A stretch of 64,000 bases of DNA. It comes from Minisyncoccota bacterium. Its GTDB lineage: Bacteria; Patescibacteriota; Minisyncoccia; Phycocordibacterales; UBA1006. The first letter of the stretch is position 1; each line of letters starts with the position of its first letter. Location of the stretch: contig JAIPIY010000001.1 in NCBI GenBank assembly GCA_021734445.1, forward strand, positions 31,849 to 95,848, read 5' to 3'. Below, one piece after another: positions 3,216 to 62,860 of the stretch. The notes under the pieces are model-generated. The model did not search any database. It was not told the origin of the DNA and saw only the letters and a list, made by a program, of their open reading frames with translations. Position numbers and translations under genes: made by a program.

Positions 3216-4022
3216 TTATTGAAGAAAAATGGGACTGGCGTCAGTACAACCATTTGCAAGTTGATACACTGTCCATGTTCCATCTGGTCTAAATTCTCCT
3301 TTTACACATTTTCCATTATACCAACCAGAAATTGCTAGTACGCTAATATTCACAGGCTTATCCAGGGTAGTTAATTTATTTACAACATCCGGTTTAGCTA
3401 TTGCATTCACACCAGGGATATCTTTACTCCATGAAGTACCATAAAATGCAACTAATGTTTTTGGACCTAATATTCCGTCAGCTACTAATCCTTTTGATTG
3501 CTGAAATGCAGAAACAGCAGCAGACATTCCTCGTCCATAAATTCCATCTAATGTTCCGCTATAAAATCCATTTGATTGAAGAAATTTTTGTATTGAAAGA
3601 ACCCGATCACCACGTGCACCTGGACGCAATGTTTCTATAGAATCAGATGTTGCCATATCTATAACAACATTAACAGAAGGATTTATAGGAGATGCAGTTC
3701 GGCTCATGATTGTCCACGATGGACAATCTGTTGGATGATTATTACATTCAATTTCGGTTACAATATCACCAACACAAATACTATTCACGACAGTGCCAGT
3801 ACAATAGGTCAATCCAGTTGATGATTCTGGTGGTACAGAAACTGTTGTCTGAGTAGTTGTTTGGTTCGCTACTAACCCACCCAATTGTATACGAATAGAT
3901 TCTATTTGATTAGCTATGGATTGCAACACACTTGCTTCGGTATTAGATTCTGCCAAAGCAATACCTCCATATGAAAATAAAAATACAAAAACGAGAAAAC
4001 TTGTACATATAATTTTTTTCAT
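3216..4022 (-). CDS. Secreted Cys-rich protein with peptidoglycan-binding (PG_binding_1) domain
   Basis: Signal peptide MKKIICTSFLVFVFLFSYGGIALA (start at the internal Met; the ORF track extends to 4103). PG-binding repeat ...GARGDRVLSIQKFLQSNGFYSGTLDGIYGRGMSAAVSAFQQSKGLVADGILGPKTL. Confidence 0.6.
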   Translation of the reverse strand: MKKIICTSFLVFVFLFSYGGIALAESNTEASVLQSIANQIESIRIQLGGLVANQTTTQTTVSVPPESSTGLTYCTGTVVNSICVGDIVTEIECNNHPTDCPSWTIMSRTASPINPSVNVVIDMATSDSIETLRPGARGDRVLSIQKFLQSNGFYSGTLDGIYGRGMSAAVSAFQQSKGLVADGILGPKTLVAFYGTSWSKDIPGVNAIAKPDVVNKLTTLDKPVNISVLAISGWYNGKCVKGEFRPDGTWTVYQLANGCTDASPIFLQ

Positions 4023-4106
4023 ACTTTTTAAATTATTAAACTCATAAAAGCACCAATATGTATAGTATACCGTCAATAGAGAAACAAAGCTAATCCTATA
4101 CAAGGA

Positions 4107-7986: not shown

Positions 7987-8277
7987 GCGAGATGGGGGGA
8001 ATCGAACCGAGGGTGCGCGAAGCCGGACGATAGTCCGTGCACCCGAGTGGGGGTCGAGCGAATGAGATGTTTTATAATCCGCCAACTGGCGGAGAAATAA
8101 AATATCCATGAGAGTGACCGATTCCCTTTTATTTACTTTCGAGGGGAATCGAAAGGCGTAGGTCGCGAAGCCAATTTTCGTAGAAAATTGATGACCGAGC
8201 CAGGGTCGTGAGCACATATTTTTAACGAACGAAGAGAGTATAAAAATAGTGACTCCTGACCGATTTCCCCACTCTTT
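7987..8277. repeat. Cluster of degenerate copies of the ssrA 3' end (two inverted, two direct); possible relic att sites
   Basis: Minus-strand copies: ...CACCCTCGGTTCGATTCCCCCCATCTCGCA (plus 7989-8016) and ...CGCGACCTACGCCTTTCGATTCCCCTCG (plus 8141-8170), each next to a GGCTTCGCG(C)ACC unit. Plus-strand copies GTGACCGATTCCCTTTT (8114-8130) and GACCGATTTCCCCACTC (8258-8276). Compare the genuine ssrA end GGTTCGATTCCCCCCATCTCC. No ORF is supported here; the ORFs 7879..8310 (-) and 7897..8100 (+) overlap these RNA-like repeats. Confidence 0.45.
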
Positions 8278-8770: not shown

Positions 8771-9184
8771 ATGAAATCACTAATCTTGCATTGCTCAAAA
8801 TTCAATTCAGAATTCAAGAGTCTTGCCACAAGACCAAAGAATATAGAACCGGAAACGGTTAACCAAACAAAATGGGAACACAATGAATCTGTGGTTGCCC
8901 TTATTACTGTAGAAAAAGAAGACAATATAGAAACCATTTCTAGCCAGATGGCTGAAGAACTTAAAAATATTCTTAAAGATTTAGGTAAAGAAAGTTTAGT
9001 TATTGTTCCATTTGCACATCTCTCAAATAATATAGCAGACCATAGAAGTGCCTTGAGTTTTTTAGATTTATTGGAAGATAAATTAAAAGGATTTAAAATA
9101 TCACGCGTTCATTTTGGATCGCATAAATCGCTATTACTAGATATACCTGGTCATGTCGGTAATGTAAGATTTAGAGAATTTTAA
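8771..9184 (+). CDS. Hypothetical protein
   Basis: 137-aa ORF. Its stop overlaps the start of the downstream methyltransferase (TAATG), suggesting translational coupling. Confidence 0.4.
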   Translation: MKSLILHCSKFNSEFKSLATRPKNIEPETVNQTKWEHNESVVALITVEKEDNIETISSQMAEELKNILKDLGKESLVIVPFAHLSNNIADHRSALSFLDLLEDKLKGFKISRVHFGSHKSLLLDIPGHVGNVRFREF

Positions 9185-40250: not shown

Positions 40251-40311
40251 ATAGGGACTATGATAGCAAAAAATAGGTCAAAAGTCACCCTTAGAAGAGC
40301 CAGGAAAAGGA

Positions 40312-43300
40312 CTATTCTGTAGTAGGTGCTTCGCCTGAATCACTACTTTCTGATTCCGAAGATTCTCCAGGTTGACCCTCATTTGAACTTTCCTCTGCTG
40401 ATTCTTTGGATTCATTAGATTCTTCTACTGTATCTTCTTGTGGTTCTTCATTTACATTTGATTCATCGGGTGCATTTCCAATATTTTCAGCGTTATCAGT
40501 ATCATCAGTATCATCAGTGTTTACATTTGATTCATTTGAAGTATTTTCAGTAGTATCATCTATTATTTCAGATTCATTATTTTCTTCATCCGAGCCATTT
40601 GCATCATCTATATCATCTGTATTATCAGAAGAAGAATTGTAATATATGGTAGAAATATTTTGATTTTGTAGTAATTGTTGTAACTGATCTTTTGTTACAC
40701 AAACATCTTCGATACAAAGCTCGTTAGTTTGAACTTTGTCAGATCGAATTATTTGTACAAACAATTCGCCTATTCCATTCCCCGCATCAGCAAACCAGTT
40801 TCGGATTCTTGAAAGAAATGTTTCATCTGAAAGATTTTGAATATCCAATATTTTCAAGTCAATTTCTTTGATTGCAGCAACAAGTACAGGTGTAATTTGT
40901 GAATAATAAACAGATTTGAGACCTTTTTCATTAGTTGCTACAAGTTCTGGGAAATATTGCTCAAGGTCTTGAGCAAGGAATCCAATTTGTGCATCTGTAT
41001 TTGGTCTGTCATTCCAGTTATACGTAACAGTTTTTAGTTGGAGTACTTTATCTAAGATATTTGTCATATCTTCGATATTTGTTTTTAATCGTTCATCTGA
41101 TGAACATGCGATACCGGTACCGGTGGTAATAGTACACTCTGTAGTGGCTGCTTGGATGCGTACGGATTCAATTGATCCTGTTGCCAAGGTTGAACCAATC
41201 ATGAGTTGATTAGTTGCTGTGTTAGTTGCCCCTTTACCCAATGCGATACTGTTAGAGAATCCTCCGGTTGAAGTGTCGTCACCGATTAAGATAGAGTGGA
41301 AATCTGCGGTGAAGTTGTTAAGGGTAAAGTCTGCTGTTTTATATCCTGCATTGTTTCCAATGAAGATGGAGTTGTTAGAGTTTTGAGAGCCGGTGTCTAC
41401 TCCATTGGATGCTCCAGCAAGATAGCCAATGAAGGTGGAGTTGTATGAGTTAGCCGCCGCAGAGCCAGCATTTTGTCCAAAGAAATTTGAATTAGAAGCA
41501 GAGGTTGCCGAAGCACCAGCATTCTGCCCAAAGAAGTTTGAGTTATTAGCATCGGTTGCCGAACTACCAGCGAAGGTACCAAAGAAGTTTGAGTTATTAG
41601 CATTAGCTGAAAAATTTCCTGAATATTCTCCAAAAAAATTTGAATGATAAACACTTGAAGAACTCGCCCCAGCAAAACGACCCAAAAAATTTGAATGGTG
41701 TGCATTAGTTGAATTTTGACCAGCATATTGACCTAAAATAATATTACCACCTGAACTAGTCGATCCCTGCTCCGCTCCTGTTAGTCCAGAAGAATATAGG
41801 GTATTACCTGCTGTTCCAACAGAAATTGGAGAAGATGTTTGTGCCGCCCAACTCATCACCCCTGCATTAGTTGATGAAAGTACATATCCATTTGTCCCAG
41901 GATATGCTGTTGGTAAAGTATATGATTCACCTTGGAATTTCCACGTAGTAATACTGTCTGGAAGTGCAAATTGGTTTGAAGCAGCGATAGCGCCGAAACC
42001 GAGAGCAATGGCATTCGAGGTATTACCTGTTGAAACATCTGCAAATGAACCGATAAGTGTGTTATTTATACCGGTAAGATTAGTGTACCCCGTACGATAT
42101 CCTAAAGCAGCATTATCAGACCCAGAAATAGTTTGAGAAAGTGATTGAAACCCATTAGCCGTGTTTCGGTTATTTGTTACTGCTTCAAGTGCTGCGTATC
42201 CAAATGCTGTGTTAAAAGACCCTGTTTGATTAAAGGCTATAGTTTGGTAACCATGCCCTGTATTATATTCACCGGTTGTGTTTGAAAATAATGACTTATA
42301 ACCAGTAGCAGTATTAAAAGACCCTGTGGTATTAAAACGAAGAGCGTAGGCTCCATGTGCAGTATTATAAAACCCTGTGGTATTAGCAAAAAGCGATTCC
42401 AGCCCAGTTGCAGTATTATTATTCCCTGTAGTATTAGAATACCCTGACTGATATCCAATAAATGTATTAGCATTTGGTCCAGAGTTATTTAACCCTGCAT
42501 CTATCCCTAGAAATGTATTGTTATTTTCGGTAAGACCCGTAAGTGATGTAGTTGTTTCCCACGATAATTGCCCAGCCCCATCAGTAGTCAAAATTTCTCC
42601 ATTCCCACCATCAGCTCGTGGGAATGTGTACCCTGAGGTTCCATCAAAATCAAATGTTATTCCAGAAGCATAATTTAAAAGTATCTTGGAATAATCTCCA
42701 GTGGAAGAATTACCCGCATTTAAATCAAAACCATCCTCTGTTATAGTAAATACATTTTGCATATCATCTCCGAATGAATCTTCTACCTGGAGTCGCATTT
42801 CGATACTCTCAGGTTCAAAGCTAGCAAATGAAAGGTAATTATTATCAAAATCAAGATATCCAACAAGTGTTGTTTGATCAGACAACCCAACACCACTGGC
42901 ATCTCCATTAAAAATGAGATTCATACCAGCAGATGGTCCACTATCGGGAACGTGTATCATCCCAGAACCAATGAAAAATTCATTTTCTAAAACATCATCT
43001 ACGAATACACCTGTGATATATCCAGGAACTAATGTTGCTGTTCCTACAAGGAAACGATCCTCATTTCGGAAGAATAATTCATCCGTCGTAATATCCCCAT
43101 TCCCATCTAAATACAAAACACTGTTTGGATCTAATCCGTCATACAGACTAATAGCACATGCTGGATCGGTTGGACCAGTACACAGAGTGTCCCCTACAGG
43201 ATCCAATGTTTCTCCTGGTGCAATAGCAGAAACCACAATACCACCATAGATAGTGAGAGCGACTACAACAAACAAAAAGAGACTATATTTTTTACATACT

Positions 43301-43314
43301 TCAAAAAATTTCAT
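40312..43314 (-). CDS. Giant secreted tail-fibre-like repeat protein with C-terminal peptidase-S74 intramolecular-chaperone domain and acidic tail
   Basis: Signal peptide (MKFFEVCKKYSLFLFVVVALTIYG; start at the internal Met). About 40 short NT..G/NTA.G repeats (NTATGLESLFANTTGFYNTAHGAYALRFNTTGSFNTATGY...). C-terminal SSDERLKTNIEDM...VTYNWNDRPNTDAQIGFLAQDLEQYFPELV matches the endosialidase/tail-spike S74 auto-cleaving chaperone domain. Terminal ~110 aa are D/E/S/N-rich. Confidence 0.6.
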   Translation of the reverse strand: MKFFEVCKKYSLFLFVVVALTIYGGIVVSAIAPGETLDPVGDTLCTGPTDPACAISLYDGLDPNSVLYLDGNGDITTDELFFRNEDRFLVGTATLVPGYITGVFVDDVLENEFFIGSGMIHVPDSGPSAGMNLIFNGDASGVGLSDQTTLVGYLDFDNNYLSFASFEPESIEMRLQVEDSFGDDMQNVFTITEDGFDLNAGNSSTGDYSKILLNYASGITFDFDGTSGYTFPRADGGNGEILTTDGAGQLSWETTTSLTGLTENNNTFLGIDAGLNNSGPNANTFIGYQSGYSNTTGNNNTATGLESLFANTTGFYNTAHGAYALRFNTTGSFNTATGYKSLFSNTTGEYNTGHGYQTIAFNQTGSFNTAFGYAALEAVTNNRNTANGFQSLSQTISGSDNAALGYRTGYTNLTGINNTLIGSFADVSTGNTSNAIALGFGAIAASNQFALPDSITTWKFQGESYTLPTAYPGTNGYVLSSTNAGVMSWAAQTSSPISVGTAGNTLYSSGLTGAEQGSTSSGGNIILGQYAGQNSTNAHHSNFLGRFAGASSSSVYHSNFFGEYSGNFSANANNSNFFGTFAGSSATDANNSNFFGQNAGASATSASNSNFFGQNAGSAAANSYNSTFIGYLAGASNGVDTGSQNSNNSIFIGNNAGYKTADFTLNNFTADFHSILIGDDTSTGGFSNSIALGKGATNTATNQLMIGSTLATGSIESVRIQAATTECTITTGTGIACSSDERLKTNIEDMTNILDKVLQLKTVTYNWNDRPNTDAQIGFLAQDLEQYFPELVATNEKGLKSVYYSQITPVLVAAIKEIDLKILDIQNLSDETFLSRIRNWFADAGNGIGELFVQIIRSDKVQTNELCIEDVCVTKDQLQQLLQNQNISTIYYNSSSDNTDDIDDANGSDEENNESEIIDDTTENTSNESNVNTDDTDDTDNAENIGNAPDESNVNEEPQEDTVEESNESKESAEESSNEGQPGESSESESSDSGEAPTTE

Positions 43315-43348
43315 ATGACTATAGTATAGCATGTTTTTTTTAAAAAGA

Positions 43349-44689
43349 TTACAGAATTTTATGAATCCAATCTTGTGCTTGTTCTTTTGTTGGAGCTTCG
43401 GCAAAAAACCGAACAATAGGTTCTGTGTTTGATGCCCTAACATGCAACCAACCGTTGTCAAAATTCACCTTGATACCATCAGTTTCATCTATAGAGAATT
43501 CTGAAAATATTGTTTTCACTTTTTCAAGATACATTTCAACTTCCTGTCGTGAAGAAACTTCTATTTTGTCTTTTACAATTTCATATTTGGGAATTTCAGC
43601 AACCAATTCGGATAACGTTTTTCCTGTTACCGCAAGCATTTCTAAAATTAATGCAATACCCACATAAGAATCCCGAACATATCCAATTTCTGGCCAAATA
43701 ATACCACCATTCCCTTCTCCACCGAACACAGCCTGATTTTCTACCATTGCATTCGCGACATGAATTTCTCCAATTTGCGTTCGCATGATTTTGCAACCAA
43801 ATTCATTTGCGACATCATCAAACATTTTTGATGTCGAAAGATTTGCAACTACTGGACCCCCTTGTTTTTCTGTACGTGTTTGCAAATAATGACGCATTGC
43901 CAATACTAATGTATATTCTTCCCCAATGGGATTTCCCTTCTCGTCAACAATGGCCAACCTGTCCGCATCAGGATCCTGGGCAAAACCAACCTGTGCACCA
44001 GTTTCGCGAACCTTTTGACCCAATACATCTAAAAATTCTGGCAACGGTTCTGGGTTTCGTTCAAATTCTCCCTCTATTTTTTCATGCAGATATATTGCGT
44101 CAATACCCAATTGCGCCATCATGTATGCATCCGCGTCAATCCCCGCCCCATTTCCCATATCTATAACAGTTGTTAATTTTGCATTTTTTATTACATCCAC
44201 CTGAACATGTTTCAAAATCTTATCAATATGATTTTTACCAGCGTCATCTTTTTTTACAACAGAGCCAGGTGTAGTATCCAACAAAGGATTCTCGCCAGAT
44301 TCATATTGTTTGATAATCTGATTCATAACAGATGGGTCTAAAAATAATCCAAGAGGGGTAAAAAACTTTAATCCATTCCAGGGTGCAGGATTATGACTGG
44401 CGGTGATCATAATACCAGCATCAGCGGATTCTGTGCGAACAGTAAATGCTAATGTAGGAGTTGCGGTGATCCCACAATGAATCACCGTGCAACCATATTC
44501 CCGCAATACACGTATTACAATTTCAGAAATCTCATTACGGCTTTTACGTGTATCAGTACCCAATATTACCTTTTTTGGTTTTACCACATCTAAAAATATT
44601 TTTATGATCTGTTCTGTGTTTTCAGGCAATAATGATTTACCCCAAATACCTCGAATACCTGAAATACCCAGCTTTAATGTGTTTTGCAT
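43349..44689 (-). CDS. Phosphohexomutase (phosphoglucosamine/phosphomannomutase)
   Basis: Active-site ITASHNPAPWNGLKF (phospho-Ser loop), metal-binding DPDADR, sugar-binding GEEYT-like loop. 446 aa. Confidence 0.85.
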   Translation of the reverse strand: MQNTLKLGISGIRGIWGKSLLPENTEQIIKIFLDVVKPKKVILGTDTRKSRNEISEIVIRVLREYGCTVIHCGITATPTLAFTVRTESADAGIMITASHNPAPWNGLKFFTPLGLFLDPSVMNQIIKQYESGENPLLDTTPGSVVKKDDAGKNHIDKILKHVQVDVIKNAKLTTVIDMGNGAGIDADAYMMAQLGIDAIYLHEKIEGEFERNPEPLPEFLDVLGQKVRETGAQVGFAQDPDADRLAIVDEKGNPIGEEYTLVLAMRHYLQTRTEKQGGPVVANLSTSKMFDDVANEFGCKIMRTQIGEIHVANAMVENQAVFGGEGNGGIIWPEIGYVRDSYVGIALILEMLAVTGKTLSELVAEIPKYEIVKDKIEVSSRQEVEMYLEKVKTIFSEFSIDETDGIKVNFDNGWLHVRASNTEPIVRFFAEAPTKEQAQDWIHKIL

Positions 44690-48667: not shown

Positions 48668-51600
48668 TTATTTTGATTCAGTTTCAAACGCTGTATCAAT
48701 GATCCCCTTTGTAACAGAAAACGGCTCAGAAGTAAATACAGGAGTATATGATTCATCTGCATTTTTTGCTTCGATGGTAATATAATAGTTTCCATTTGCT
48801 ATCAAACAATAATATCTTCCTCTTTCATCAATAATTACGTGCTTGATTTCTTTTTGCAGTTTTGCAGAAAATACACGAATAATTCCAAATGACAATGGAA
48901 CACCACGATGCGTAACCGTTCCATGCGGATGTGGTTTTAATAACGTAACACGAACAAAAAAGATGAGAATATATGCGACAAATACAATAATATTTAATGT
49001 TGACGGTAATACAAACAATGTCCATGTTGCAATTCCAAAACCAATCCAAAAGAATAGGCTGGCTATTTTAACCAATATGGCTTCATGTTTCACATCAAAA
49101 CTCATGACACCCATTTCTTTTTTCGCAAATTCATTCCAATTAAATTTCAATGGATCCATGGGAATATTGTGTTTGATTACTTGCCCTTCTTCGGTGATGA
49201 TTATCTGTCCTCCAAAATACAGATTGTCATATACTGCGTCTTTTGTAGTATTTGCCAGTTTTTGTGATGGGAATTGATAATCTGTTTTGTGAATCACAAG
49301 GGTATAGGTTCCTGGTTTCACCAAAAATCCATACCGACCATCCAAATCAGTAATAGAAGTTGCTACTTCGTTACCGTTTACATCCATCAACATCACATAT
49401 GCTGGATCAAGAGGTTGTTTGGTTACTGCATCATATACAACCCCCCATTTTTCTACTTTTTTCTTGAGACCAAGACCCGACAGTAGGAAATTCCACAATC
49501 GCATAGGTACCGTAGATAACTGTGGTAACAATGCCATGCCTGCGGTTGCAATACCGGCAACACTGGCCAAGATACCTAATGTGGTCATTGTTTTACCAGT
49601 AGTGCTTTGCACAAAATCAGTTACAGAAGCAACTATTTCTTCAATGAAATCAGTGAATCCTGATGATGAGCCATCTGACCCCTGATTATCCGTAGTTGAT
49701 GATAAGGTATCTTCATTATCATCAAAAGGAAAATCTTCAAATTCCTCTTCAGTATCTTCCATATCTTCTTCATCTATGGGCTCATCTTCGTCTACCGGGT
49801 CTTCGGTTGGTGATTCTGGGGTTGGAGTATTTGGTGAATCAGTAGGCTCTCCTGTTGTTGGTGGCTCACCGGTAGATGTAGTTGTTGGAACAATAATAGC
49901 CGAACCTCCAGAAGAAGATGTGCTATCTGTATTTGAATCTTCTTCCTCATCTTCTGGCTCTACTGCTTGAGTAATAGCAAATGATGAAAAAGAGGTGGCA
50001 TTAAAAATACATCGATTTTTACTATCAATAGTACACTGAGTTAACGCAGACCAAGAGCTTGATTCTGGGGATTTGTGAAATACTGTATATGTTTCTCCTA
50101 TGATAATTCCGGGTATATTTTCAAGCTGAATTTCAACAGACTGAGAAGCCTGTAAATTACTGTTTGGTAATCCAAAAGAAAAACTACGCAGAACTTCTTG
50201 ATTATCAATACCGGGTAGTGTAGTAAGGCCCAAATCATCTATTAACGTCAGGGCTTCAAAATTTGTTTTACCTAAATATCTAAATTCAGTCCCTGCATCA
50301 ATCGTAATTCGATCATTAATAGAAATTGAATCAAAGACAATAGCATTATTAAACAATGCGCGTATACCATTTGTTCCTTCGAATCTCTCTCCCCAACCCT
50401 CATTCAGGGGTTCATATATTCCTGATCTATACAAAGACCAAACAAGATCATCTCCAGAAACAGTGTAAGAATTAGTTGCATCAAGCCAAGAAATTTGAGA
50501 ATTATCAACAGCATTAGGGTTCATATACCCATATCCATATCCATACGTGAATTCATTCCCAGGAGCAGAAGATCCACCAGATGTATCATATTTTGAAACT
50601 TCTAATTTCCATCCAGCAGAAGGGGCCGTATCTATATGAAGCACATGCGGAACATCTTCAGATAATACAAAATCCAACCCATACATGCTCGTAAAAGAGT
50701 CTCCTAATAAATCCATTCGAAACCAAGCACTACCATCTACAAGCCTTTCAACTGATGTATTATAATTCAATGGATTACCATCATCCGAATATGCCACATA
50801 CAATACTCCATCCGAATCAGCTTCCATTTTAATATATTGAGGAGCATGACTTGAAAAACCTTGTGCGCCGACAAAAACACCTCCACCAGAAGAAACATCT
50901 TTTACAGAAACATGCCCGCCTCCATATGCATAGTCCTGATATGCAATATACAAACTATCATCGACAGATACCATATCAAAAGAACCCGATATAGTTGTAT
51001 ACAATGGATGTAATAGAATTGATTCCCACTCTAATGCCAAAGTTTTCACATCAATACGATACAAAGAACCATCATAATATTTATAAGCAACATAGAGATC
51101 ATCATTATCATCAATAGAAAAACTCAATACTGACATAGCCCCGGTAGCAACAACCTCTGTTGTTGGTCCTTCTACATTTTCCCAATCAGGTCCATTGTCA
51201 TATTTTAAAACACGCAGAGTTCCCGTATCATTAATAGCAACATGAACAACGTCCTGTGAATCCAGAGCGATTGCATGATCATACATAGTAGCAAGAGTCA
51301 TAATAGGACCAGCACCAATCACTTGCCAAGAACCACCAACCAATTTAATCACCGTGGGCCCAGTAGTTCCCTGGAATAAAACATAGGGCACATCCTGAGA
51401 ATCCAAAGCAATCTTTGGTCGGGAACCCGTAAATCCCGTTTCCTGAAATGTATTCCATGACCCCTCTGTGTATCCAACAACTTTTATGGCACCTGAAAAA
51501 TTATCCACATACGCCACAGCAATTTTATCATCTGAACCTCTTGCCATGGAAAACCCTTGTGCCAGACCAACCGATGTAGTAGGAAAAATATTTTCTGAAA

Positions 51601-51838
51601 TATCAACCCATACTGGATTTGAAACCATTCTATATCCCGCTAACTGTCCCAAATCCCAACCATATCCGTATCCATAACCATATCCATAGCCATATCCCCA
51701 ACCAACAGACCCTGTTTGCCGTGCAAACTGAGCAAAAGCAACACCCGAACTGGCAATCAATCCAATAATCAGAATAGCAATGAAACTTTGTTTTTTTGTA
51801 ACGAAAAAATTGTGTATTTTTTTTATGTGCTGGATCAT
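48668..51838 (-). CDS. Giant (1056 aa) surface protein: N-terminal GY-repeat module, beta-propeller-like repeats, acidic linker, TM segments, C-terminal carboxypeptidase-regulatory-like domain
   Basis: Signal peptide then [28 protein letters not shown]; a second GYGYGY block; repeated ...LYVAY/LYIAY blade-like motifs; D/E/T/S-rich linker; hydrophobic helices; C-terminal [39 protein letters not shown]. Confidence 0.6.
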
Positions 51839-61804: not shown

Positions 61805-62860
61805 TTATCTACCCAATAATGCTTTTATAACTGCAAGAGTTTTTGGACCAACGATACCATCTACAGTAAGTCCATGTTTTTCTTGGAATTTTTTTACTGC
61901 TGCATCTGTCAAGGGACCAAAATATCTTGTTTCGTTTCCAGGTGATCCGGCACCAACTACTGCAAGTTGTGTCGCAGGGTCACTGTTAAGGAATTGTTGA
62001 AGTTTCAGAACATCATCTCCTAACATGGAAATACGTAATGTTCTTTCAAGTATTTCTGATAGATTCATATCACCCCCCAGAGATTGTAATTGAGCTTGAA
62101 GAATTGCAACCATATGGAGCAATAATCCACGTAGTTGATTTTGCAATGTTGGAACATCAGATGATAATAGTATTGGATTAATAGCTGAACTACTTCCTCC
62201 TGAAGAACCACCTCCGCCACCAGAACTACATGCAGAAGTTGATTTAGTTGTAGCGTTATTATTCCATATATTTCCACCAGCATCTTCAGATAATACACGA
62301 ACATCATATTCAGTACCACAAGTAAGACCGGTAATAGTTACCGTATATTCATCAGCTGTTTCTAATTCAGGATCAGTAGATGCATCATAGTCACCTTCAC
62401 CATATTCTACAGAGTTTGTTGCAGTATAGGTTGTTGTATAGGTAACAGCAAGAGTTGTTTTTGTTGTATCAATAGAATTAATCACTGCAGATCCATCGTC
62501 TCCAAAGAATCCATAGTCACTGTAATTATTTACACCAGATTTAAAACTGTAACCATATCCATATCCATCACCATTATCATAACCATAACCATAACCATAA
62601 CCAAACTCCAACAGAGGAAGTGTTGTTCGATAGAACTGTGCATAGGCAACAGCACCGCCGGCAAATGCAAAAATCATACCTAATACAAGCATTTTTTGTA
62701 TTGAAATATTTAGCCCACGTAATGTATTTTTAATATTCATAATCTTTTTCTTTATATTGTTATTAATGGCACTTTGCACAAGATACTTATAGTATAGGCA
62801 ATTTTTGAATATAAAACAAGAAGTTATCCACAGTTTTGCATAAAACAAAATTAACCCCAA
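61805..62860 (-). CDS. Secreted GY-repeat protein with Gly/Ser linker and C-terminal peptidoglycan-binding domain
   Basis: Signal peptide then [35 protein letters not shown]; central beta-rich domain; SSGGGGGSSGGSSS linker; C-terminal PG_binding_1 (TRYFGPLTDAAVKKFQEKHGLTVDGIVGPKTLAVIKAL). Confidence 0.55.
   Translation of the reverse strand: MGLILFYAKLWITSCFIFKNCLYYKYLVQSAINNNIKKKIMNIKNTLRGLNISIQKMLVLGMIFAFAGGAVAYAQFYRTTLPLLEFGYGYGYGYDNGDGYGYGYSFKSGVNNYSDYGFFGDDGSAVINSIDTTKTTLAVTYTTTYTATNSVEYGEGDYDASTDPELETADEYTVTITGLTCGTEYDVRVLSEDAGGNIWNNNATTKSTSACSSGGGGGSSGGSSSAINPILLSSDVPTLQNQLRGLLLHMVAILQAQLQSLGGDMNLSEILERTLRISMLGDDVLKLQQFLNSDPATQLAVVGAGSPGNETRYFGPLTDAAVKKFQEKHGLTVDGIVGPKTLAVIKALLGR

Follow-up and report, generated by a model that had tools for sequence, protein, structure and literature searches.

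A chromosomal gene for a putative phage-tail-fibre-like surface fibre in Candidatus Pacebacteria

The fibre gene and its domains

The window analysed here is a 64,000 nt stretch of contig JAIPIY010000001.1 (positions 31,849 to 95,848 of the forward strand) from a Minisyncoccota bacterium, and the gene under study encodes a 1000-residue protein with a signal sequence, a repetitive shaft and a C-terminal peptidase S74 domain of the kind found on phage tail fibres. Its open reading frame (ORF) runs on the minus strand from an ATG at 43314 to a stop codon at 40312, in agreement with the coordinates and frame given by an earlier inspection of the letters (the sequence-only reading). If the ORF is extended to a TTG start at 43461, it runs into the upstream PGM/PMM gene (end at 43349), and 43314 is therefore the sensible start. 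The gaps between the fibre gene and its two neighbours are 34 and 61 nt. An identical protein at NCBI (P0001), on a 252-kb contig, is named 'MAG: tail fiber domain-containing protein [Candidatus Pacebacteria bacterium]', MAG denoting a metagenome-assembled genome. The features of the gene, from the N-terminal end of the product (aa, amino acid positions; AF2, AlphaFold2), are as follows.

40312–43314, minus strand: coding sequence of the fibre precursor, ATG at 43314 to stop at 40312; 1000 aa plus stop
43225–43314, minus strand: Sec-type signal sequence, aa 1–30 (cleaved peptide or signal anchor), from the hydrophobic window and an AF2 helix
43156–43218, minus strand: N-terminal Cys-loop motif PGETLDPVGDTLCTGPTDPAC, aa 33–53 (Cys45, Cys53), from family conservation
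42529–43224, minus strand: N-terminal beta-rich domain, aa 31–262, common only to close relatives
42013–42519, minus strand: repeat block 1, 10 x 17 aa NTxxGxxxLxxNTTGxx, aa 266–434, period 17
41755–41979, minus strand: junction segment, aa 446–520, with a second copy of the motif YT(F/L)P...G..(V/I)L....G.(L/M)SW, read from the sequence
41335–41745, minus strand: repeat block 2, about 8 x 17 aa SNFFGxxAGxxAxxAxN, aa ~524–660, period 17
41101–41334, minus strand: predicted distal tip of the mature fibre, aa 661–738, with the Cys727...Cys737 loop
40840–41100, minus strand: S74 core and start of a long helix, aa 739–825, from PF13884, AF2 and Foldseek
41083–41100, minus strand: catalytic motif S739-D-E-R-L-K744; predicted scissile bond between Ser738 and Ser739
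40645–40839, minus strand: post-chaperone module, aa 826–890 (WFADAGNGI..., a Cys867-x4-Cys872 hairpin and a short helix), from alignment
40315–40644, minus strand: low-complexity polyacidic tail, aa 891–1000, with 39 D+E and 1 K+R

The sequence-only reading had recognised an S74 chaperone near the C-terminus and proposed a hidden Markov model search and a look for the Ser-Lys dyad; both bear it out. PF13884 matches aa 739–792 with an E-value of 8.5e-18 (64.8 bits against a cut-off of 22) and is the only significant match in a Pfam scan of the protein. In an alignment of 28 C-terminal regions the dyad, Ser739 and Lys744, is invariant, as are Asp740, Gly778, Ala781 and Gln782. Searched against the PDB, the profile of this alignment finds the tail-fibre chaperones 6f45 (9e-19), 8jov (6e-18) and that of T5 (8hqz), as well as MyRF (7dc3) and GA-1 (3gud), with the SDxRxK residues aligned. 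The AF2 model of aa 700–895 has a predicted local distance difference test score (pLDDT) of 86–97 over aa ~740–825, and its 11 best Foldseek matches in the PDB are all intramolecular chaperones, among them 3gud (GA-1), 3gw6 (endoNF) and, as the top match, 7dc3 (MyRF; E 8e-5). The window holds only this one S74 gene. Domains of this type trimerise at the C-terminus and nucleate the fibre; the chain is cut N-terminal to the catalytic Ser in the correctly folded trimer only, and the distal tip is unmasked (PMC4690869, PMC10769870). T5 pb1 cleaves between Thr1263 and Ser1264, with Lys1269 (PMC4690869).

The protein begins with a basic n-region, a hydrophobic stretch (aa 11–33) and an AF2-predicted helix (aa 4–24), in keeping with the earlier proposal that it has its own signal peptide. 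A candidate signal-peptidase site can be read between VSA30 and I31, and cleavage after AIA is disfavoured because Pro would occupy position +1; homologs have canonical AxA sites, such as AYA before TPP and VFA before AQL. Behind the signal peptide, a motif of the type GETLDPxCxPGxxxC occurs in 23 of 48 complete family ORFs, and it is present also in P0003, P0006, P0007 and P0009. The beta-rich domain (aa 31–262), presumed to be the cell-proximal end, is 62% identical in loci L001 and L004 and 36% in L029; its AF2 confidence is low to moderate.

About 40 NT..G pseudo-repeats had been counted upstream of the chaperone. The repeats stand, but their number does not: there are about 18 units of 17 aa (about 36 half-units) in two blocks. 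The strict pattern N[TS]..G occurs 10 times, compared with 2.4 +/- 1.5 in shuffles. Block 1 is modelled with a pLDDT of 70–82 and short strands every 8–9 residues, and matches the virion structural protein family phrog_23837 (E 1.4e-28) along with tail spike and tail fibre PHROGs; over aa 232–791 the protein is 28% identical to a Roseobacter phage tail protein. Block 2 is common to 43 related loci. Within the junction segment, 44 aa are 86% identical to P0002 (locus L004) and P0004, in which the flanking repeats and the length differ, and this near-identity between unlike repeats indicates a mosaic origin. The AF2 model of the full-length monomer was used solely for secondary-structure periodicity, as its fold search was not significant; the best of its weak matches is the Bdellovibrio Bd2133 fibre. 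At the distal end of the shaft, the Cys727...Cys737 loop stops one residue before the predicted cut, and the pattern C-x(8-16)-C-[ST]-S-D before the catalytic Ser is kept in many homologs.

The S74 core is followed by two further elements. The module has the family consensus WFADxGNGIxxFFAxE...C(x4-10)C(V)T.D(Q/E)L, in which two Cys and one Asn do not vary, and in the window protein it is modelled with low AF2 confidence (pLDDT 50–63). When the module by itself served as the profile in an exhaustive search, 2154 cluster representatives were retrieved at E <= 1e-3, 815 of them at <= 1e-10; among 150 representatives listed, it is C-terminal in proteins of up to 3688 aa. In the best 143 representatives, an S74 core lies about 100 residues before the module in 115, 15 are fragments too short to judge, and 13 longer proteins lack S74. 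About 8 of these 13 share the motif GVVST.PG..LG...VALAGRVPVKVN, and one of those sharing it, P0260, passes the Pfam threshold for Peptidase_G2. Peptidase_G2 is the other known type of self-cleaving chaperone of phage appendages. A G2-type domain appears to take the place of S74 before the module in P0260, P0264, P0197, P0137, P0146 and P0208, and in P0197 and P0264 a Bact_surface_Ig-like domain stands after the module in place of the acidic tail. The possibility that the module is a general C-terminal sorting signal on unrelated proteins was considered and rejected, given S74 upstream in 115 of 143 and G2-like proteins making up about 8 of the 13 others. The module therefore appears tied to self-cleaving fibres.

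The 110-aa acidic tail pointed out earlier is also a family trait: it is kept in the Patescibacteria subfamily, and the relatives from Bacteroidota and viruses do not have it. Across the family, the tails behind the module are 90 aa long in the median, with mean contents of 0.18 for D+E and 0.008 for K+R; their composition is kept across the family, their sequence is not. No transmembrane segment or known anchoring motif was found after the S74 domain by Pfam and hydrophobicity, the sole hydrophobic window of the protein being aa 4–34. Three closely spaced Cys pairs (Cys45-53, Cys727-737 and Cys867-872) all fall in the exported part, and would form three short disulfide loops.

Relatives and genomic setting

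Homologs comprise at least 2998 proteins at E <= 1e-3. Among those that carry a name, many come from Bacteroidota, are called 'tail fiber domain-containing proteins' and show the same 17-residue repeats; PF26696 is listed for Bacteroidota relatives, and NCBIfam has no model for the fibre protein. The closest full-length relatives (P0002–P0009) share their ends with it: the signal peptide and G(E/D)TLDPxCxPGxxxC loop, the Cys-x(8-16)-Cys loop, S74 with the long helix, the module and the acidic tail. With P0002 and P0004 the window protein is 62% identical over the N-terminal 230 residues, and differs in repeat content and length. As judged from these comparisons the family is mosaic, with conserved ends and swapped middles. 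We define a Patescibacteria S74 fibre subfamily by five features (signal peptide with GETLDPxCxPGxxxC loop, Cys loop before the cut, S74, Cys-hairpin module and K/R-poor tail), all of which are found in the window protein.

A scan of one genome per GTDB species gave 435 relatives, of which the best 80 were examined. Among these, matches that extend through the module are almost only from Patescibacteria, a distribution that rests on record titles: Nomurabacteria, Paceibacterota, Taylorbacteria, Woesebacteria, Minisyncoccia and MAGs labelled 'Saccharibacteria'. Several genomes carry 2–3 copies of the family gene. Most loci from outside the Candidate Phyla Radiation (CPR), in Gammaproteobacteria, Planctomycetes, Bacteroidales, Micavibrio and Bdellovibrio, match in the S74 core only. 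Two short contigs binned as Alphaproteobacteria and Anaerolineaceae (L072 and L084) carry the module, which could reflect mis-binning or a rare transfer. In IMG/VR 428 relatives were found, and the best 80 match in the S74 core only. The module is present in 59 of the best 80 genomic loci against 0 of these 80 viral loci, and its profile, scanned directly against IMG/VR (2.9 million viral contigs), found no relative.

The sequence-only reading had seen no phage genes near the fibre gene and had placed it between cell-wall precursor genes. Both statements hold. Throughout the 64 kb the annotated ORFs are all cellular, and no capsid, terminase, portal, tail, baseplate, integrase or lysis genes are present. 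A PGM/PMM (GlmM-like) gene lies upstream, and an NTP_transferase (GlmU N-domain-like) gene downstream, followed by Alr and three Mur ligases. Other genes of the window encode RecG, FtsH, TruB, IF3, RNase J-like, NDK, MAP, PyrH-like and Adk proteins, a TraG/VirD4-like ATPase, SecY, L15, S5, L6, S8, both ribonucleotide reductase subunits and VIT1, and there is a glycan and ABC (Wzt/Wzm) cluster.

Similar settings are seen in relatives. On four other metagenome or MAG contigs, the neighbours labelled by Pfam are ribosomal proteins, EF-G/EF-Tu or GrpE/DnaK: P0004 and P0002 are encoded between rplB (L2) and rpsS (S19) of the S10 operon, P0009 directly 3′ of fusA, and P0006 between grpE and dnaK. 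In these conserved operons the fibre genes occupy nt 8001–11300 in L001, 7001–11089 in L004, 4833–8588 in L006 and 8001–12338 in L003. DsbB and thioredoxin-fold genes also occur near homologs. For the 80 genomic loci, neighbours were labelled by BLASTP against Pfam-identified references. Among the 66 Patescibacteria loci, the fibre gene is no more than five genes away from a ribosomal-superoperon gene in 24 (36%), a count that is inflated by shared ancestry, and no more than two genes away in 18; our rough baseline estimate for a random gene this near the cluster, based on genome size, is about 5–8%. Of 105 immediate neighbours, 86 (82%) point in the direction of the fibre gene. At least seven different junctions were seen, including L2–fibre–S19, S7–fibre–EF-G, EF-G–fibre, fibre–EF-Tu, MAP–fibre and fibre–S8, and this variety speaks for repeated relocation of fibre genes. 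One recurrent order is fibre, CarboxypepD_reg membrane protein, rpsL-rpsG-fusA.

Folding placed a strong terminator-like hairpin 5′ of the fibre gene in L001 (-20.5 kcal/mol, z -6.8) and L029 (-21.3 kcal/mol, z -7.8), and a promoter-like site (TTGACA-16-TACTAT) lies 3′ of the fibre gene, before rpsS, in L001 and L004. This arrangement suggests that the fibre gene of L001, L029 and L004 may form an insulated cassette. The idea that fibre genes merely ride on ribosomal operon transcription was also considered; hairpins before the cassette and promoter-like sites after it (L001, L029) weaken it.

In the window, folding gave no hairpin 5′ of the fibre gene. Consensus promoter and terminator scans returned no more sites than in shuffles. 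One short element can be read directly before the start codon.

43323–43331, minus strand: extended -10-like element TGCTATACT, 8 nt 5′ of the fibre ATG, read from the sequence

No Shine-Dalgarno sequence can be read before this ATG. The TGCTATACT element is not among the sites listed by the consensus promoter scan; a near-identical copy is found 5′ of the homolog in L029, and a similar TGnTAnAnT in L001 and L004. It may be the fibre gene's own promoter, with a leaderless or near-leaderless mRNA. Elements of this TG-extended type are located 8–9 nt before the ATG of the next gene (40260–40288, minus strand) and of the fibre gene (43323–43331, minus strand), and the gene next after the fibre gene also lacks a Shine-Dalgarno sequence. 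The pair of elements hints at leaderless transcripts in the source organism.

A possible partner is encoded 5 kb upstream.

48668–51838, minus strand: candidate partner; membrane protein of 1056 aa that carries a CarboxypepD_reg domain (PF13620, E 7.8e-11)

It has a signal or transmembrane segment, GYGYGY runs, an acidic linker and several transmembrane segments, and in 12 of the 66 Patescibacteria loci a homolog of it is encoded no more than two genes away from the fibre gene. By this gene neighbourhood in relatives only, it may be a functional partner of the fibre.

Other features of the window were observed alongside. From 15663 to 51838 (about 36 kb) all listed large ORFs are on the minus strand except that at 26517–27089 (plus), and ribosomal, cell-wall, nucleotide and surface-protein genes are mixed. 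The continuity of the spc operon (L5...S8) is broken, because a gene block that includes the fibre gene sits upstream of S8. A 921-aa TraG/VirD4-like type IV coupling protein (18961–21726, minus) is encoded directly after MAP, at the end of the ribosomal/SecY/Adk block; in L074, a locus from Taylorbacteria, MAP and the TraG/VirD4-like homolog are separated by two genes, one of which encodes an S74 fibre. PG_binding_1 proteins are encoded at 3216–4103, 23909–26392 and 61805–62860 (all minus), one of them (827 aa) between Adk and cytidylate-kinase-like genes, and the three are probably wall-associated surface proteins. A stand-alone threonyl-tRNA synthetase editing domain of the archaeal type (8771–9184, plus; 137 aa; PF08915, E 6.5e-21) and a 131-aa SET-domain protein (11311–11706, plus; PF00856, E 1.5e-25) are also encoded in this bacterial genome.

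Proposed maturation and role of the fibre

The reading we prefer, with a probability of about 0.7, is that this chromosomal gene of Candidatus Pacebacteria, a tiny and probably host-dependent bacterium, encodes the precursor of a phage-tail-fibre-like surface fibre that is matured by its own cut and serves, most likely, for attachment. The sequence-only reading had already suggested a cellular fibre built with a phage-derived module, and this is supported; the phage likeness extends to block 1, which matches phage virion and tail-fibre families, and neither the N-terminal domain nor the region after S74 matches such families.

The precursor would be exported via Sec through its N-terminal signal sequence. 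Outside the cell, the C-terminal S74 domain, emerging last, would trimerise and nucleate folding of the shaft, as is established for the S74 family. In a correct trimer, Ser739, activated by Lys744, would cut the bond between Ser738 and Ser739, as the conserved residues and the fold predict. The cut would release a very acidic propeptide of 262 aa (29 kDa), consisting of the chaperone, the Cys-hairpin module and the K/R-free tail, and would unmask the disulfide-looped tip (Cys727-Cys737) on a mature subunit of about 73 kDa. The N-terminal end, by its GETLDPxCxPGxxxC loop or as an uncleaved anchor, would hold the fibre on the cell surface. For the module and tail, a role in export or assembly control of a fibre that crosses the membrane unfolded is a speculation; it is favoured because the module follows two unrelated chaperones, viral contigs lack it and the tail is nearly free of K and R.

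Several points weigh against this reading. Trimerisation, cleavage and host attachment are inferred for the window fibre, and so, from its sequence, are export and surface location; a cleaved signal and an uncleaved anchor are both possible at the N-terminus. Attachment, be it of an epibiont to its host cell or to surfaces of another kind, is argued by analogy only, and nothing within the 64-kb window shows an epibiotic interaction. The AF2 model of the full-length monomer is weak (mean pLDDT 59). Finally, the Ig-like domain that follows the module in some members means that the C-terminal fragment may be more than a discarded propeptide.

A wider reading, held tentatively and rather doubted, is that such fibres form a phylum-wide Patescibacteria system: Sec-exported fibres of phage type, whose assembly is controlled by a disposable, lineage-specific propeptide (an S74 or G2 chaperone, a disulfide-stapled hairpin module and a polyanionic tail) and which are encoded in self-contained terminator-promoter cassettes within ribosomal operons, would be host-recognition organelles of non-Saccharibacteria CPR epibionts, acting instead of, or alongside, type IV pili. 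The K/R-free tail might then keep the chains from trimerising too early, while still in the cytoplasm, or power the final stage of translocation.

Less likely again, though still to be taken seriously, is a general envelope or coat component (a spacer, protection, a phage decoy or biofilm matrix) in place of a specific host adhesin. Location in housekeeping operons with 82% co-directional immediate neighbours fits constitutive expression, the CarboxypepD_reg membrane protein recurs beside the fibre gene, and Pfam recognises no ligand-binding domain at the tip; all of this would suit a coat protein. The highly mosaic central and distal parts and the several paralogs per genome are instead the pattern of receptor-binding proteins under diversifying pressure, and in T5 and Bdellovibrio the release of S74 unmasks a binding site (PMC4690869, PMC10769870).

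It is improbable that S74 only trimerises the protein, or that it cuts while the C-terminal fragment stays functional, so that the functional end would be the module with its tail or Ig-like domain, perhaps as an anchor that binds the wall or cations. The module is widespread and conserved (2154 representatives, two invariant Cys and one invariant Asn), Bact_surface_Ig-like replaces the acidic tail in P0197 and P0264, and the part of MyRF after its S74-type domain is the membrane anchor (PMC3742443). Nevertheless, the window protein has neither a transmembrane segment nor a known anchoring motif after S74, its catalytic dyad is strictly conserved, the tail is kept in composition only, and the presence of the module behind the self-cleaving Peptidase_G2 as well fits a role tied to a propeptide.

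A secreted, unattached tailspike-like enzyme or toxin directed at the host envelope would account for the signal sequence, and S74 is frequent on phage depolymerase tailspikes such as endosialidase; this is very improbable, as Pfam, PHROGs and NCBIfam give no enzymatic domain and the body consists of short fibre repeats, not of a large right-handed beta-helix catalytic domain. The tail fibre of an ordinary prophage, prophage remnant or tailocin, to which the phage homology of S74 and block 1 would point, is scarcely credible and already largely refuted by the lack of phage structural, integrase or lysis genes in the 64 kb, by a Sec-type signal sequence, which is superfluous for virion fibres that assemble in the cytoplasm, by relatives that stand singly inside ribosomal and chaperone operons, and by a module without a relative in 2.9 million viral contigs.

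Host recognition by the ultrasmall Patescibacteria is mostly unknown beyond a few cultivated Saccharibacteria, for which a part played by type IV pili and some adhesins is indicated. The literature searched holds no paper linking Patescibacteria or the CPR with Peptidase_S74 or tail-fibre-like proteins, and in the Patescibacteria epibiont literature searched tail fibers are never mentioned. Already known are the tail-fibre domain, flagged by the automatic NCBI name, and the existence of cellular S74 fibres, proven in Bdellovibrio (PMC10769870). New are a mosaic Patescibacteria family with conserved ends, a propeptide module without a relative in IMG/VR, and fibre genes at seven or more junctions in or beside ribosomal-protein operons. 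A large, mosaic, multi-copy fibre family provides concrete candidates for host-range determinants that can be tracked in metagenomes, and its conserved ends (the N-terminal Cys-loop motif and the module) could be handles for expression, antibodies and probes. Fibre genes within near-universal ribosomal-protein operons are an unusual genome architecture, clearest in rplB–fibre–rpsS. At the family level, follow-up is warranted for the propeptide module, for the cassettes embedded in operons and for the putative partner protein.

Comparison with known systems

The window protein is a true S74-domain protein, and does not belong with prophage fibres, trimeric autotransporters or MYRF-type proteins. 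Trimeric autotransporter adhesins (YadA-like) enter the comparison as JGI gives some relatives that name. YadA_head matches occur in Bacteroidota relatives, above the cut-off in P0091 (E 2.6e-10) and below it in P0016; the window protein has no YadA_head match at E <= 1 and, by Pfam, no YadA anchor beta-barrel, and its repeat period is 17, not 14. The ICA domain of eukaryotic MYRF (7DC3) is the best structural match of the predicted S74, and is likewise an S74 domain captured by a cellular protein. The cut in MYRF separates a transcription factor from the transmembrane anchor behind the domain, whereas no transmembrane segment follows S74 in the window protein.

Bacteroidota 'tail fiber domain-containing proteins' have 17-residue NTAxGxxALxxNTTGxx repeats and S74 in common with the window protein. 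Some carry an extra domain after S74 (PF18962), the C-terminal sorting domain of the type IX secretion system, while most end 100–160 residues past the catalytic Ser with a coiled coil only. Missing from them are the GETLDP Cys-loop, Cys-hairpin module and acidic tail, and they are secreted by the type IX system in diderm cells.

Phage fibres (K1F endoNF, 3GW6; T5 pb1, 4UW8/8HQZ; S16 gp37, 6F45; GA-1 gp12, 3GUD) agree with the window protein in the sequence, fold and Ser/Lys dyad of S74, and its repeat shaft is homologous to phage fibre families. In the phage fibres the chaperone lies at the distal, C-terminal end, and its release exposes the tip (PMC4690869), as proposed for the window fibre. 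The window protein differs in having no virion context, a secretion signal, an N-terminus that is not a virion-attachment domain, and about 175 extra residues after the chaperone, which are absent from viral contigs.

The closest characterised system is that of the mosaic adhesive trimer (MAT) fibres of Bdellovibrio, in which a signal peptide and a conserved N-domain precede a variable fibre and S74; they are located on the surface, and the substitution S782A blocks cleavage (PMC10769870). Thirteen of 21 members end in an S74 domain, and self-cleavage is proven (PMC10769870). The window protein differs from them in its shaft of 17-residue NTxxG/NTTG repeats and in the Cys-hairpin module and polyacidic tail after S74. 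Nor does it show similarity to the beta-rich N-terminal domain (~130 aa) that MAT members share, although the test is weak: BLASTP of aa 31–262 against the Bdellovibrio sp. S74 protein L086 gave a best E of 0.41, and L086 is not verified as a MAT member. The source organism is presumably monoderm, with export by Sec, the family genes lie in ribosomal or other housekeeping operons, and the fibre is predicted from sequence. The S74 core of the window protein is nevertheless 47% identical to that of L086. Like the S74 subgroup of MAT proteins (e.g., Bd3182), it is a non-phage fibre with a signal peptide, a conserved N-terminal end, a mosaic shaft and tip and a C-terminal S74 domain with SDxxxK, in a family with several paralogs, and the organism that bears the MAT fibres lives on other bacteria. 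The family described here extends that precedent, in that bacteria living on bacteria seem to reuse the receptor-binding hardware of phages.

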